Shown here: positions 6,421 to 45,372 of the stretch, piece by piece
How positions within the stretch are numbered: the first letter of the stretch is position 1
Layout: each line of letters starts with the position of its first letter
Virus record (IMG/VR): IMGVR_UViG_2851982317_000003
From: a virus
Lineage: Duplodnaviria; Heunggongvirae; Uroviricota; Caudoviricetes
Length of the DNA stretch: 49,084 nucleotides
Direction: 5' to 3' (one strand)
Position numbers and translations under genes: made by a program
Notes under the pieces: generated by a model
Database searches by the model: none
Told to the model about the DNA's origin: nothing
Seen by the model: only the letters and a program-made list of their open reading frames with translations

Positions 6421-6717
6421 TTATACCTCTGAATCAATATCAACCTGGTGGTGAGCAATGGTTTCAACCATGTACCGGATGTGTTCTGCCATGCGCTCCT
6501 GAAACTCAACATCGTCATCAAACGCACGGGTAATGGCTTTTTTGCTGGCCCCGTGGCGTTGCAAATGATCGATGCATAGCGATTCAAACAGGTGCTGGGG
6601 CAGGCCTTTTTCCATGTCGTCTGCCAGTTCTGCCTCTTTCTCTTCACGGGCGATCTGCTGGTAGTGACGCACCCAGCTCTGAGCCTCAAGACGATCCTGA
6701 ATGTAATAAGCGTTCAT
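6421..6717 (-). CDS. gam: Gam, RecBCD inhibitor (98-aa GamS-length form)
   Basis: [56 protein letters not shown]... Confidence 0.95.
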
Positions 6718-6792
6718 GGCTGAACTCCTGAAAATGGCTGTGAAAATATCGCCCGCGAAATGCCAGGCTGATTAGAAAAACAGGAAAGGGGA

Positions 6793-6999
6793 TTAGTGAT
6801 TCAGGCCGTTGCCGCGTCCGTCGAGAAAAACTTCCACGAGCAAGTCACGGGTATAAGTGCGCTCGATGCCGCGATGCAGATAAAGCCGTCCGCGTAAATT
6901 AGCTGATGCAGTCCAGGTACCATCTTTGTGTTTGACCAGCATTCCTGGCATGACCGCACCGCGATTAACGGTCTGCGTTCCGTAATGTTGATGAACCAT
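6793..6999 (-). CDS. kil: Kil-family host cell-division inhibitor (KilR-like), start at internal Met with AGGAG RBS
   Basis: 68-aa reading MVHQHYGTQTVNRGAVMPGMLVKHKDGTWTASANLRGRLYLHRG...VFLDGRG with KilR-like pattern (H..GT...PG..V.H...T..ASAN...LY...VFLGRDG); kil position next to gam. Confidence 0.6.
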   Translation of the reverse strand: MVHQHYGTQTVNRGAVMPGMLVKHKDGTWTASANLRGRLYLHRGIERTYTRDLLVEVFLDGRGNGLNH

Positions 7000-7259
7000 A
7001 AAAACTCCTGCCCGTAAGCTGGGCTGCTGAACATATAAAGACTTCTGCGCGTATTCAGGCGGTGGATGGCCGCCGGTTGTCATAACTAAGCCGCCTCGTT
7101 GAAGCGACTGAGGTATGAAGTGTTGAGTTGATTTCAGCTGGTCACACCGACGTTCACGCGTCCGCTTCACCCCTCGCACTCCCCGGAGCCTGCTGAAATT
7201 CAAGCTGCGGATCTAAGCGGTCATCGCAACGGTGAATCAGGTGATTGCCGTATCGTTGT

Positions 7260-7400
7260 GTTGTTGCGACATGGTGATAATAGCTATTGCTATTGATGAT
7301 ATCAATACTTATTGCTATTGATAGATGTGTTTTGATATTAAATATTTGATAGCAAAAAGAATTAATTTTGTGACTTGCATCGCATAGCGATAACTGAAGC
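7260..7400 (-). promoter_or_regulatory. Candidate OL/pL operator-promoter region (leftward early promoter)
   Basis: AT-rich block with repeated TTGCTATTG / TATTGAT motifs and an ATTGATGATATCAAT inverted repeat; the same words recur in the cI-cro intergenic region. Confidence 0.45.
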
Positions 7401-7444: not shown

Positions 7445-7472
7445 TAAAAGAAAACCCGGCACGGTGGCCGGG
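7445..7472 (-). terminator. Intrinsic terminator downstream of the DUF4411 gene (hairpin CCCGGC-ACGGTG-GCCGGG, U-run on minus strand; plausibly bidirectional)
   Basis: Perfect 6-bp GC stem with T-rich tracts on both sides, immediately after the stop of the 7478-7990 gene. Confidence 0.6.
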
Positions 7473-7477
7473 ACGTT

Positions 7478-7990
7478 TTATTTCAAAGAAAAATTATGAC
7501 TAGCGTATCTTGGAAGAAATTCATATAGTGTTAATGTCTTAACGCCGTGAGAAGCAGCAGCATCCGGGATCATTATTCTTTTTTTAGGTTTGCCACCGGA
7601 TGGTTTCTCATGGGTAATAATAGTATATCCATGTGTCATCGCATGGGCTATTAAAAAAGCATCTGCTTTTTCATGGCTTGCAAAATCAAACTTTGCCTTT
7701 TCGGTAACATCTAATTTAGTTGACCAATTTATTAACTTTGCATAATTTTCTATTGAACTATGCTCATCTTCGAAGAATGATGATGGTAACTCTTCTTTAA
7801 TCCATTTACACAATGGATCATCTTTTGCACATAGTTCTTTTTTTACAGCATTAATGCTATAAATCAGACCATTAATGTGTAAAGCGAGAAGAAAATCCCA
7901 AAATATTTTGCAATAATTGAAGTTATATGCAAAGTTTTTTGCCTCTATGAAGACATTACTATCAATTAAGAATTTTCCATTATGAATCAT
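7478..7990 (-). CDS. DUF4411-family (PIN-like fold) protein; second gene of the cI-proximal accessory cassette
   Basis: 170-aa ORF (MIHNGKFLIDSNVFIEAKNF...); start overlaps the stop of the upstream peptidase gene (ATGA), i.e. translationally coupled. Confidence 0.65.
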   Translation of the reverse strand: MIHNGKFLIDSNVFIEAKNFAYNFNYCKIFWDFLLALHINGLIYSINAVKKELCAKDDPLCKWIKEELPSSFFEDEHSSIENYAKLINWSTKLDVTEKAKFDFASHEKADAFLIAHAMTHGYTIITHEKPSGGKPKKRIMIPDAAASHGVKTLTLYEFLPRYASHNFSLK

Positions 7991-8581
7991 AGAGATTCTC
8001 GTTTTTTATAAAATTCAACAACTGTATCTGCTTTTACATTTAGCAGTACGCCTGCTTCCCTTAATGGTAATTGTTGAGACATTGCTTTGGAAATTATTAT
8101 ATTCGTAAGTTTTGGACTGTTGCGAACAGGTAATGTGTTAAAGAAAGAACCACCATTAGATTCTTTTTTGGGCTTATTGTAAGCTTGATCTTTAATTATC
8201 TCCAAAGTGTTTCTTTCTATCAAATCTAATTGTAACGCTTTGATTGCACAAGCGAAATCACTAACCTTAAATAACTTAGAAACCTCTTTTACTCGATAAT
8301 AATTATTATCGCTGGATGCATTAAGCCAGAAAGATTTGAAGAGATTATCAGGCATTAAGATTTCAGCAGCAACTTTATTACAAAAAGATTCTATGTTTTT
8401 TTCTGTGTCCCACCCAGAGACTCCATCGACTCCAAGCCAAAGATGAGCCACCTCATGAAATAATGTAAATACCTGCGCAGATAACGCGTCCGAGCTATTT
8501 ACAAAAATGATCGGAGCAACGCTATCAGATATACAGAAACCACGAAACTCTCGCGTGTCAAGTTTTCTTTTATTATTATTA

Positions 8582-8590
8582 CCCACAACA
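8582..8590. repeat. IS1 target-site duplication, left copy (CCCACAACA)
   Basis: 9-bp direct repeat abutting the IS1 left terminus. Confidence 0.9.
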
Positions 8591-8645
8591 GGTGATGCTG
8601 CCAACTTACTGATTTAGTGTATGATGGTGTTTTTGAGGTGCTCCA

Positions 8646-8921
8646 GTGGCTTCCATTTCCATCAGATGTCCTTCCTGCTCCGCTACTGAAGGCGTGGTGC
8701 GTAACGGCAAAAGCACTGCCGGACATCAGCGCTATCTCTGCTCTCACTGCCGTAAAACATGGCAACTGCAGTTCACTTACACCGCTTCTCAACCCGGTAC
8801 GCACCAGAAAATCATTGATATGGCCATGAATGGCGTTGGATGCCGGGCAACAGCCCGCATTATGGGCATTGGCCTCAACACGATTTTACGTCACTTAAAA
8901 AACTCAGGCCGCAGTCGGTAA
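8646..8921 (+). CDS. insA: IS1 InsA
   Basis: 91-aa [46 protein letters not shown]... Confidence 0.95.
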
Positions 8922-9343
8922 CCTCGCGCATACAGCCGGGCAGTGACGTCATCGTCTGCGCGGAAATGGACGAACAGTGGGGCTATGTCGGGGCTAAATC
9001 GCGCCAGCGCTGGCTGTTTTACGCGTATGACAGGCTCCGGAAGACGGTTGTTGCGCACGTATTCGGTGAACGCACTATGGCGACGCTGGGGCGTCTTATG
9101 AGCCTGCTGTCACCCTTTGACGTGGTGATATGGATGACGGATGGCTGGCCGCTGTATGAATCCCGCCTGAAGGGAAAGCTGCACGTAATCAGCAAGCGAT
9201 ATACGCAGCGAATTGAGCGGCATAACCTGAATCTGAGGCAGCACCTGGCACGGCTGGGACGGAAGTCGCTGTCGTTCTCAAAATCGGTGGAGCTGCATGA
9301 CAAAGTCATCGGGCATTATCTGAACATAAAACACTATCAATAA
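8840..9343 (+). CDS. insB: IS1 InsB (made as an InsAB' fusion by frameshifting)
   Basis: 167-aa ORF in the -1 frame overlapping insA. Confidence 0.9.
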
Positions 9344-9358
9344 GTTGGAGTCATTACC

Positions 9359-9367
9359 CCCACAACA
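9359..9367. repeat. IS1 target-site duplication, right copy (CCCACAACA)
   Basis: Identical 9-mer abutting the IS1 right terminus. Confidence 0.9.
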
Positions 9368-9934
9368 CCATTCTTGAAAACTAATACGCCAGTGTCTTCT
9401 ATTAGTTTTGCCACTTTAGAAAAATAGCTCTCAAAAGTGACATTTTTTATCTCTTTTTGTATATCAAAATGTATTGTGTTTGCTATGTCTGTAGCAACAA
9501 CCTTATAATTTAATTTTCTATTAAATTTAAATTTACCAATAAAATCGAGTGGATCATCATTACCATTTTCTCTTAAATAGTCTTTGTACCACTCAAGTTT
9601 ATATTCTATATCATAGTAAACATCAAAAAAATCTTTTCCTAACTCACGGCTATTTATAGCTTGCCTTAAGTCAGGGATCTTGGGTTTGGCTGGAGTTGGT
9701 GGCGTTTCAAGAAATAAAAAACCGAAAGGGATTCCTCCAATTTTTGCCAGTTTTTCTGCTGCGGATTTACTTACCACTCCGTTAAGAAATTTATTAATCT
9801 TTTTGGGCATGACTTGGTCAGCAAGAGTTTCGATAGAAACTCCTTGAGAATTTGCTATCCAATCAATCATCTTCCTAGACAATTGAAATTCAACCGCTGC
9901 CATGTTATCACCTAGTTAAAAAAACCTATTATTC

Positions 9935-9998
9935 AACAATTATTGTTGTGCACCTGATAGCTAACGTCAAGCCTAATTTATTGCCTTACTACAGTAAG
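9935..9998. promoter_or_regulatory. Two inverted repeats in the promoter-proximal gap between cI and the peptidase gene: CAACAATTATTGTTG (9935-9949) and CTTACTACAGTAAG (9985-9998)
   Basis: Perfect 7-1-7 and 6-2-6 palindromes in the 129-bp intergenic region; candidate operator sites. Confidence 0.35.
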
Positions 9999-10032
9999 CT
10001 GAAAAGCGAAGTGCATAATTTTGTTCTGATTT

Positions 10033-10761
10033 CTACCCATGCTTTCTATATGTCTGCGGCATGCTCCCGATGACTTTCCCGAAGATGAACACGCGGTTCA
10101 TCTCGTCTTTCTCGATCGGGTCCCACGGTGAGTAGCTCTTGTTATCAGAGATAACCAGCAGCTTATCCTTCATCATTTGCAGGCGTTTTACATGGGCGGT
10201 GTCGTCATACAGAAACGCATAGATACCATCACCGTCGAAAGATTTAACCGTGATATCAACGAACAGCAGATCACCTGGTTCGATCGTTCCTGACATGCTG
10301 TCACCACGCACGTTAATGATGCGGATATTTTCCGCCTTCCTGCCATCGAACATGTGACGAGCATCGTCAAACGAGTATTCAACCGAGCGTAGAACTTCTA
10401 CAAACTCACGGTTGATTACACCCGGCCCGGCACTGACTTCTATATCAAGAACGTCAATTTTGAAGTATTTGGAATGGCTGATAGCAGGCTTCCCTGATTG
10501 TTGACCGTCATTTCTCATCGGGCCTATGCCTGAAGAGAGCCATTCTGTTCGAACACCCAATGCATTAGCTATTTCAACAATTTTTGTTGAGCCGCGCGCG
10601 TTGCCGCTTGTCAGTCTCCAGATTGTGGGTTGAGCTACGCCAGACGCCTTTGCAAGAGCGCCTTGAGACATTCCAGATTGTTCCATCGCTAGATTTAAGC
10701 GATCAGCAAGAGTTTCTTTTTTCATAAGTTTTAATTTATACGCTTGCGTATTGATGGTCAA
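10033..10761 (-). CDS. cI: CI-type prophage repressor (N-terminal HTH + C-terminal LexA-like S24 self-cleaving domain); true start probably the internal Met MKKETLAD
   Basis: HTH (QGALAKASGVAQPTIWRL) and S24 motif (VRGDSMSGTIEPGDLLFVD...VKRL); divergent from the cro-like gene. Confidence 0.85.
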   Translation of the reverse strand: MTINTQAYKLKLMKKETLADRLNLAMEQSGMSQGALAKASGVAQPTIWRLTSGNARGSTKIVEIANALGVRTEWLSSGIGPMRNDGQQSGKPAISHSKYFKIDVLDIEVSAGPGVINREFVEVLRSVEYSFDDARHMFDGRKAENIRIINVRGDSMSGTIEPGDLLFVDITVKSFDGDGIYAFLYDDTAHVKRLQMMKDKLLVISDNKSYSPWDPIEKDEMNRVFIFGKVIGSMPQTYRKHG

Positions 10762-10829
10762 AACACGTTTTGCTATTGCTTGGATTAATACGCATTGCTA
10801 TTATTCATTCATTGCAATACCAATAGGAA
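10735..10829. promoter_or_regulatory. OR / pRM-pR divergent operator-promoter region
   Basis: Intergenic region between divergent cI and cro-like genes; palindrome ATACGCTTGCGTAT (10738-10751) and TTGCTATTG motifs. Confidence 0.55.
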
Positions 10830-11063
10830 TTGATAATGACAAATCAAACCATTCAACTCGCAATCAGTATTACAGGTAGTCAAAAACGACTGGCAGATCT
10901 ATGCGGTGTAGCCCAACCCACAGTTTGGCGTTGGCTACACGGTGGCGGAATTGATGCCCGCTATGTAATGAAAATTGTCTCAGCCACTGGTGGAAAGATT
11001 AAACCAGCAGATATTCGTCCCGACCTCGCACCATTGTTTAACGCGAGTAATTCTGCCGCCTAA
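10830..11063 (+). CDS. Cro-like / YdaS-like HTH regulator
   Basis: 77-aa HTH protein (QKRLADLCGVAQPTVWRWL) divergent from cI. Confidence 0.7.
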   Translation: MIMTNQTIQLAISITGSQKRLADLCGVAQPTVWRWLHGGGIDARYVMKIVSATGGKIKPADIRPDLAPLFNASNSAA

Positions 11064-13881: not shown

Positions 13882-14122
13882 TCAGAAAGACGAGTAATCA
13901 TAGAGGTACTATCACCCGGGTAACTATTGCTATTATGAACGGATAGGATAGAGGCTTCAATAACATATGCATCAAGTATGATGGAATATGTAGATGAAAA
14001 TGACTTGTGTCAAATTTGTGGAAATGAGTACCATGTTTCTCTGAAATTGATGTCGTTAATGGCTAGTGATAGTGAACTTTTTTACTTTATAATTCCTTTG
14101 GTTATAACAATAAGGTAAATTT

Positions 14123-44772: not shown

Positions 44773-45372
44773 ATGCGTAAATTATGTGCTGTTATTTTGT
44801 CCGCAGCCATCTGTCTGTCCGTATCCGGTGCGCCTGCATGGGCGTCTGAACATCAGGCCACACTGAGCGCAGGGTATCTTCATGCCCGTACGAACGCTCC
44901 CGGCAGCGATAATCTGAACGGGATTAACGTGAAATACCGTTATGAGTTTACGGACACGCTGGGGCTGATTACGTCATTCAGTTATGCCAACGCTGAAGAT
45001 GAGCAAAAAACGCATTACAGCGATACCCGCTGGCATGAAGATTCCGTGTGTAACCGCTGGTTCAGCGTGATGGTGGGGCCGTCTGTGCGCGTGAATGAAT
45101 GGTTCAGCGCGTATGCGATGGCGGGTATGGCTTACAGCCGTGTGTCGACTTTCTCCGGGGATTATCTCCGCGTAACTGACAACAAGGGGAAAACGCACGA
45201 TGTGCTGACCGGAAGTGATGACGATCGCCACAGCAACACGTCTCTGGCGTGGGGAGCTGGCGTGCAGTTTAACCCGACCGAATCCGTGGCCATTGATATT
45301 GCTTATGAAGGCTCCGGCAGTGGCGACTGGCGCACTGACGGTTTCATCGTGGGTGTCGGTTATAAATTCTGA
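44773..45372 (+). CDS. lom: Lom outer-membrane protein (Ail/Lom family beta-barrel)
   Basis: 199-aa ORF with signal peptide and terminal GYKF. Confidence 0.9.

Follow-up and report, generated by a model that had tools for sequence, protein, structure and literature searches.

The gap between the cI-like gene and a peptidase gene of a prophage: a probable cassette promoter with a palindrome over its -10 block

Locus, cassette genes and boundaries

The DNA considered here (the window, 49,084 nucleotides of a viral record, 100% identical to a prophage of the ETEC strain E2528-C1) carries on its minus strand a cI-like S24 repressor gene, then an intergenic gap, and then, starting at 9903, the gene for a HTH-M78 (ImmA/IrrE) peptidase, which is followed by a DUF4411 (PIN-like) gene, a terminator and, in turn, pL-like and OL sequences (Table 1). 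An earlier note on this DNA placed two perfect palindromes in a 129-bp gap at this point and took them for possible operators or part of a secondary promoter. The gap is real, being bounded by the stop codon of the cI-like gene at 10033-10035 and the ATG of the next gene at 9903-9901, and its A+T content is 67%.

Table 1. Features of the window, in minus-strand order
Feature	Position	Strand	Basis or remark
cI-like S24 repressor gene	10033..10725	-	Pfam Peptidase_S24 and HTH_3; annotated cI in related phages
Intergenic gap	9904..10032	none	129 bp; read as the 5′ control region of the cassette, not the 3′ region of cI
Inverted repeat 2	9985..9998	none	CTTACT-ac-AGTAAG; minus strand CTTACT-gt-AGTAAG
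-35 hexamer TTGACG	9965..9970	-	Promoter scan; invariant in nine protein-defined lineages
Block CAACAAT	9942..9948	-	Holds -10 hexamer AACAAT (9942-9947); upstream arm of palindrome 1
Palindrome 1	9934..9948	none	CAACAAT-t-ATTGTTG, 7-bp arms, one central base; minus strand CAACAAT-a-ATTGTTG
Leader	9908..9924	-	T7 run 9918-9924; Shine-Dalgarno AGGTGA 9908-9913, 4 nt before ATG
HTH-M78 (ImmA/IrrE) peptidase gene, 5′ part	9359..9903	-	Codons 1-182, with Xre-like HTH
IS1	8591..9358	+	768 bp, splits peptidase gene; comparison with uninterrupted L001; annotation
Peptidase gene, 3′ part	7987..8590	-	HEVAH zinc motif
DUF4411 (PIN-like) gene	7478..7990	-	Pfam DUF4411 E = 1e-37; 4-nt overlap with peptidase end
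Intrinsic terminator	7445..7472	-	CCCGGCCACCGTGCCGGG and T-run; 5 nt past DUF4411 stop codon
pL-like promoter TTGATA-17-TATTAT (7305-7277) and OL words	7277..7320	-	Far boundary of insertion site

The 9-bp target duplication of the IS1, cccacaaca, stands at 8582-8590 and 9359-9367. The insertion breaks the peptidase gene after codon 182, so that the HTH-bearing N-terminal fragment and the DUF4411 gene are intact. In the uninterrupted L001 the peptidase, which is matched by Pfam Peptidase_M78, has 379 aa, and the gene is likewise unsplit in the 31 remaining E. coli carriers of the cassette, among them IAI1 (NC_011741.1). Were the peptidase an essential antitoxin, the insertion would be lethal unless it were polar on DUF4411 or the N-terminal fragment sufficed.

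An AlphaFold model of the peptidase (pLDDT 86.6) has an N-terminal five-helix bundle (residues 10-19, 24-31, 36-40, 46-56 and 60-64) and then the M78 domain, with a low-confidence linker, residues ~66-90, between the two. For the peptidase part the best Foldseek matches are CapP (7t5t) and IrrE (3dti); the first 59 residues give local matches to the controller proteins C.BclI and C.AhdI at an rmsd of 2.7-2.9 Å. Also pertinent is a full-length homologue in the PDB, 9vzy (chain 9vzy_A, 393 aa, 'HTH cro/C1-type domain-containing protein', E = 2e-20), whose alignment to the peptidase starts at residue 10. Because the Pfam HTH models fell below threshold on the whole protein, and neither Pfam nor NCBIfam gave an HTH match on its N-terminal 81 residues, the fold is taken from the model and the PDB homology, which bear out the 'HTH-like domain' of the earlier note as an HTH of the Xre/cro-C1 type. 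Among PADLOC models those for RmrA (Rosmer antitoxin) match the peptidase weakly, at a best E of 6e-8, and the capP model scores better.

In 2,208 E. coli genomes and 18 phage records, homology to cI breaks off at query positions 681-694, mostly at 684-688, equivalent to ~10033 of the window, the cI stop codon. Since it stops there, the gap belongs with what follows. Gap and downstream gene occur in 32 of 5,426 genomes, the gap being seen only together with the cassette, and a search of phage records with the cassette DNA gave no match. The GC content of the cassette is 0.29-0.37 as against about 0.5 in the flanks, and the same cI allele is followed in Lambda_4C10 and PhiR68_2 by unrelated two-gene cassettes. 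Judged from these comparisons, an inserted cassette occupies the rexAB position of lambda, and the gap forms its 5′ end. There is no terminator between cI and the cassette, and therefore read-through from pRM is also to be expected, as for rexAB. The stretch from cI to pL/OL takes variable cargo (window 7445-10032; L118 2004-3500; L119 1948-3496).

Promoter, leader and terminator across cassette lineages

The earlier note had suggested, as one of two possibilities, a secondary promoter analogous to lambda pLIT. On the minus strand, which is that of the downstream gene, a promoter scan picks out TTGACG-17-AACAAT at 9970-9942, with TTGACG agreeing with 5/6 of the -35 consensus and AACAAT, 17 nt away, with 4/6 of the -10 consensus, including A at position 2 and T at position 6. 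By the same scan, promoter-like matches are no commoner in the region than in shuffles, and it is comparison of lineages that is informative. As all 32 genomes with the cassette are at least 99% identical over the gap, variation within E. coli is uninformative in this regard. Protein searches yielded a graded series of homologues, and exact-protein look-ups eight further lineages at 70-82% protein identity, nine with that of the window. These nine sit behind five different repressor genes, dinI or ydcA, and DUF4411 is always next. (In other prophages the HTH-M78/DUF4411 cassette lies directly downstream of at least five different repressor genes.)

When 210 nt around the start codon were aligned for the nine lineages, the only invariant upstream blocks were TTGACG, CAACAAT, GGTG and ATG, with a T-rich stretch kept as well, and the distance between TTGACG and CAACAAT is exactly 16 nt in every lineage. 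Two fixed blocks at a constant distance with a free spacer are, to judge by sequence, the signature of a sigma-70 promoter. The idea of a secondary promoter thus gains support, because blocks and spacing are invariant across contexts while their surroundings are randomised, and the gap very probably holds the cassette's own promoter. We infer promoter activity, and a start site at G 9934 or G 9937, from the position of the blocks; palindrome 1 spans the distance from the -10 block to that start, its second arm falling 1-8 nt downstream of the block. The T-run and GGTG of the leader are kept across lineages. The likeness to pLIT has proved loose, and extends no further than the presence, past cI, of a second promoter specific to the cargo; comparison with a moron, taken up below, serves better.

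With pattern scans over viral and metagenome contigs the tally of distinct promoter lineages came to 17, in 8 of which the invariance of TTGACG and CAACAAT is by construction because the search pattern required both. At greater distance, a profile search of genome contigs gave, among the matches listed, homologues 33-54% identical, most with unrelated upstream regions; L003 and L007, also among those listed, have TTGACC-17-AATACT upstream. Three contigs of Pasteurellaceae bacterium Macca (L004, L005 and L006, again among the matches listed) carry identical 51%-identical homologues with identical upstream regions, which suggests several related prophages or a repeated element.

A different type of case is provided by L160 and L162. 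Their peptidase shares 23% and their DUF4411 protein 24% identity with the window proteins, and in place of the window's HTH they have a canonical HTH_3 domain with another recognition helix, yet the -35 and -10 blocks are the same and the leader is 69-79% identical to the leaders of the window, L087 and L127, with 69-71% to that of the window. In both, control regions are better conserved than genes (L160 995-2759, L162 869-2634, reverse strand of each locus). At the other end, a hairpin CCCGGCC(N3-5)GCCGGG with a T-run follows DUF4411 not only in the window but also in L087, L088, L089, L092, L127, L162, L163 and L153; changes in its loop and stem are compensatory, with pairing kept, and L162 retains it despite cassette proteins that share no more than 23-24% identity with the window's. 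The genes have thus diverged more than the two ends that enclose them, as would suit an expression unit that moves as a whole; more speculatively, recombination at the conserved ends may exchange the coding part.

The two repeats and the readings they allow

Both repeats that prompted interest in the gap exist, though 'two perfect palindromes' needs amendment: the first lies one base lower than the 9935-9949 originally given, and the second, at the coordinates noted earlier, has 6-bp arms about a 2-nt non-symmetric spacer and so is no perfect palindrome. Dinucleotide-preserving shuffling of the gap, done 20,000 times, gave an inverted repeat with arms of at least 7 and a spacer of at most 4 in 7% of cases (P = 0.07), and one with arms of at least 6 in 23% (P = 0.23). 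By sequence alone palindrome 1 is marginal and inverted repeat 2 is at chance level. The further claim, that the repeats are unrelated to the operator words of the immunity region, holds: ATTGCTATTG at up to one mismatch is absent from the gap, while such words cluster at OL (7280-7320) and OR (10769-10830), with isolated sites also at 13926-13935 and 45292-45301. Operators for cI or Cro are ruled out as an explanation of the gap repeats because these words are missing there.

Whether palindrome 1 could be an operator for the HTH of the peptidase, the other possibility originally raised, is a matter on which the lineages give mixed evidence. An inverted repeat of at least 5 bp that uses the -10 block is present in 10 of the 17, against 2.5 expected from composition-preserving shuffles of spacer and leader, an enrichment that is overstated because the lineages share ancestry and that comes, on our own estimate, to roughly P = 0.05 when independent origins only are counted. 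Individually, the 7-bp arms of the window have P = 0.034 and the 8-bp arms of L165 P = 0.004. The dyad at palindrome 1 is probably not an accident of sequence, and it does place dyad symmetry over the core promoter of the operon. However, the arm that partners the -10 block is found 1 nt downstream of it in the window, 2 nt downstream in L127 and L160, 3 nt downstream in L087, L091, L083 and L162, and 5 nt downstream in L163, but 2 nt upstream in L088 and L091 and 8 nt upstream in L165. Such variation in spacing and side counts against an operator, because a rigid dimer would not tolerate it, and the dyad is, on this comparison, unlike the fixed operator of such a dimer.

Nor do the proteins and the site vary in step. 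L088, whose HTH is near-identical to that of the window (A3V, I25L, I37L and A50G in the first 60 residues), is without the downstream arm and so without the window's dyad, and half-site sequence and spacing are not kept among relatives with the same DNA-binding domain. Conversely, L160 and L162 keep ACAAT-N2/3-ATTGTG before a 23%-identical protein, so that the site does not change along with the recognition helix there. These data could be reconciled by a dimer whose HTH domains are tethered flexibly, and the model does show the low-confidence linker between HTH and peptidase. Palindrome 1 is, on the sequences, a plausible candidate for a site at which the cassette's HTH-peptidase acts as repressor, at somewhat less than even odds, and this is the likeliest added role of the dyad; the protein would, by analogy with toxin-antitoxin autoregulation, bind there and occlude the -10 block and start site. 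For inverted repeat 2 an operator role is unsupported.

Relative to the inferred start, inverted repeat 2 occupies about -64 to -51 and precedes the -35 hexamer; its right arm reaches into an A-rich tract, semi-conserved and similar to an UP element. In the aligned upstream regions of lineages other than L091 there is nothing, or there are unrelated repeats. By eye, a LexA box was also considered and rejected, TACTGTA being one half-site with no ACAG 8 nt later. Most likely the repeat is without function, being due to chance or at most a feature of one sub-lineage.

Sequence features, cassette boundaries and conserved promoter, leader and terminator are observed, and the explanation that seems best to accommodate them, with a probability of about 0.7, is that the gap is the promoter region of a self-contained cassette, that palindrome 1 is its -10 block together with an inverted copy and that repeat 2 is functionless. 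The unit, lying between a repressor gene and pL/OL, would comprise promoter, HTH-M78 peptidase gene, DUF4411 PIN-like gene and terminator. Its minus-strand promoter would be of sigma-70 type, with TTGACG, a 17-nt spacer, AACAAT and a leader of ~30 nt containing the T-run and AGGTGA, and the invariant CAACAAT block would have its inverted copy, ATTGTTG, over the start site. With its own promoter, and no terminator before it, the cassette could be transcribed alone and also by read-through from cI.

Of the alternatives, the most durable keeps the promoter and dispenses with protein recognition: palindrome 1 would then be the -10 block beside a start-site and leader motif (ATTGTG, T-run, GGTG) that is complementary to it by chance. 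This is a real possibility, if one well short of even odds. It accords with retention of ATTGT(G) as part of a leader that keeps 71-79% identity even between cassettes with 23-24%-identical proteins, with the variation of 1 to 3 nt in the spacing of ATTGT(G) to the -10 block, with the lack of a dyad in seven of the 17 lineages, and with the TG dinucleotides that, as read from the sequence, fall 5-8 nt past the -10 block, where transcription would usually start. Yet dyads have arisen independently on the other side of the block, in L088, L091 and L165 (the last with the 8-bp arms already mentioned), and the spacing in L163 is another one again, all of which leader conservation alone explains poorly.

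A more ambitious version of the promoter-and-operator reading, and an unlikely one, has the -10 block and its movable inverted copy serve as operator of a single-protein switch of ImmR/ImmA type. A dimeric HTH-M78 protein would occupy the -10 block and start site through HTH domains borne on flexible linkers; infection or damage, once sensed, would lead it to cut off its own HTH, with a burst of the PIN-like effector as the result. The conserved promoter-leader and terminator would be portable ends, or homologous linkers, that let very different HTH-M78/PIN cassettes swap into the repressor-adjacent hot spot of enterobacterial prophages.

A further regulatory role for inverted repeat 2, as the site of an activator, repressor or host factor close to the UP-element position, is improbable. 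The repeat adjoins the A-rich tract, and L091 has at the same place in the alignment TTTAC-ggt-GTAAA, whose outer pair has changed on both sides; but the repeat is absent from the other lineages, its arms are at chance level, and its right arm alone overlaps semi-conserved bases. Slightly less probable still is that both repeats are chance and the gap holds no promoter, with the cassette expressed only by pRM read-through together with cI, like rexA. The shuffle probabilities for the two repeats, the unexceptional count of promoter-like sites and the lack of a terminator after cI are all in keeping with it. Invariance of TTGACG-N16-CAACAAT in nine protein-defined lineages whose flanking bases have all diverged is not, especially as these include lineages where the cassette follows dinI or ydcA and not a repressor gene.

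Least credible of all is that the repeats act as RNA hairpins in a read-through transcript from cI into the cassette, as terminator, attenuator, processing site or stabiliser, for although a 6-bp hairpin at palindrome 1 is part of the minimum-free-energy fold calculated for the gap RNA, that RNA is less structured than its shuffles (z = +1.6, with 195 of 200 folding at least as well), a scan of 9904-10032 finds no terminator-like site, Rfam has no match for the gap, the T-run begins 9 nt past the palindrome 1 stem, inverted repeat 2 gives a 2-nt loop, and there is no RNA-level reason for the hairpin always to take in the -10 block. An RNA element or terminator in the gap can be set aside on these grounds.

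Parallels in known systems

Several well-studied arrangements are relevant to a promoter region at the head of such a cassette. Morons are accessory genes with their own promoter and terminator that lie between conserved genes of lambdoid phages, and are reportedly described in the comparisons of HK97 and HK022 by Juhala and colleagues in 2000. The window cassette has a promoter, two genes and an intrinsic terminator between cI and pL/OL, a composition unlike that of its flanks, and other cargo at the same site in related phages with the same cI, and on each of these counts it qualifies as a moron. What sets it apart is conservation of the window-type promoter-leader and terminator across cassettes with 23-24%-identical proteins.

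In lambda, pLIT is at the end of rexA and drives rexB only. Like rexA-rexB, the window cassette lies between cI and pL/OL on the cI strand with no terminator after cI, and with co-transcription from pRM expected in addition to a second, cargo-specific promoter. The proteins are, however, unrelated to RexA and RexB, and the conserved promoter is intergenic and precedes both genes, where a promoter of pLIT type would be inside the first cargo gene.

With type II toxin-antitoxin operons, in which an Xre-type antitoxin such as MqsA, HigA or HipB binds a palindrome over its own promoter, the window shares a first gene that bears an HTH, a PIN-like gene that overlaps its end, and dyad symmetry across the -10 and start site of the operon promoter. 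The parallel is weakened by the variation in dyad position and spacing among close relatives, and binding, toxicity and neutralisation are putative for the cassette.

Closer in protein architecture are cases where HTH and peptidase are fused. HTH-DUF955 proteins with DUF4411 have been predicted to form toxin-antitoxin-like modules, and DUF4411.1 genes downstream of HTH-DUF955 fusions to be part of putative three-component toxin-antitoxin systems (Matelska et al., PMC5499597), which is exactly the architecture found here. Ernits et al. (PMC10440598) treat proteins of the ImmA-HTH type as antitoxins that form a hub, with connections to phage defence as well as to PIN-like partners, and the RosmerTA and ImmA-HTH antitoxins of that study share with the window protein a fused N-terminal HTH-M78/ImmA peptidase beside a PIN-like gene; the DUF4411 protein of the window differs from RosmerTA in matching no PADLOC model. 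Neither study describes the control region of the cassette. ImmR/ImmA of ICEBs1, CapH/CapP of CBASS and DdrO/IrrE, in each of which an M78 protease cleaves an HTH repressor, also have the M78 fold, and a combination of HTH and protease could couple a signal to derepression. In those systems repressor and protease are separate and the operators are experimentally defined, whereas the window HTH-M78 protein has both fused in one chain, for which cleavage is speculative.

Placed among these systems, the gap is part of an imported cassette and not of the immunity region. It is an ordinary feature of a known kind, and current understanding is not overturned by it. What it offers is a concrete promoter and candidate operator for a widespread, uncharacterised HTH-M78/DUF4411 module at the exclusion-gene site of lambda. 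Should the dyad be autoregulatory, it would give a handle on the control of a PIN-like effector in lysogens by a fused repressor-protease. The better conservation of promoter-leader and terminator than of the proteins that they flank is a small lead on cassette exchange between prophages.

Two further features of the window may be mentioned. CAACAATTTTTGTTG, at 10575-10589, differs from palindrome 1 at a single position and lies where cI encodes its HTH; 0.02 such near-copies would be expected per window. As a partner site of palindrome 1 it was rejected; it probably arises by coincidence from the coding sequence of cI, since it is also present in phages that have the same cI but are without the cassette (L118 and L119). 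On the far side of the cargo site, the interval 6717-7277, between the pL-like promoter and a kil-like gene further downstream, holds no RefSeq gene and no recognisable N gene; at the corresponding place L092 and L093 have a weak N_peptide match.
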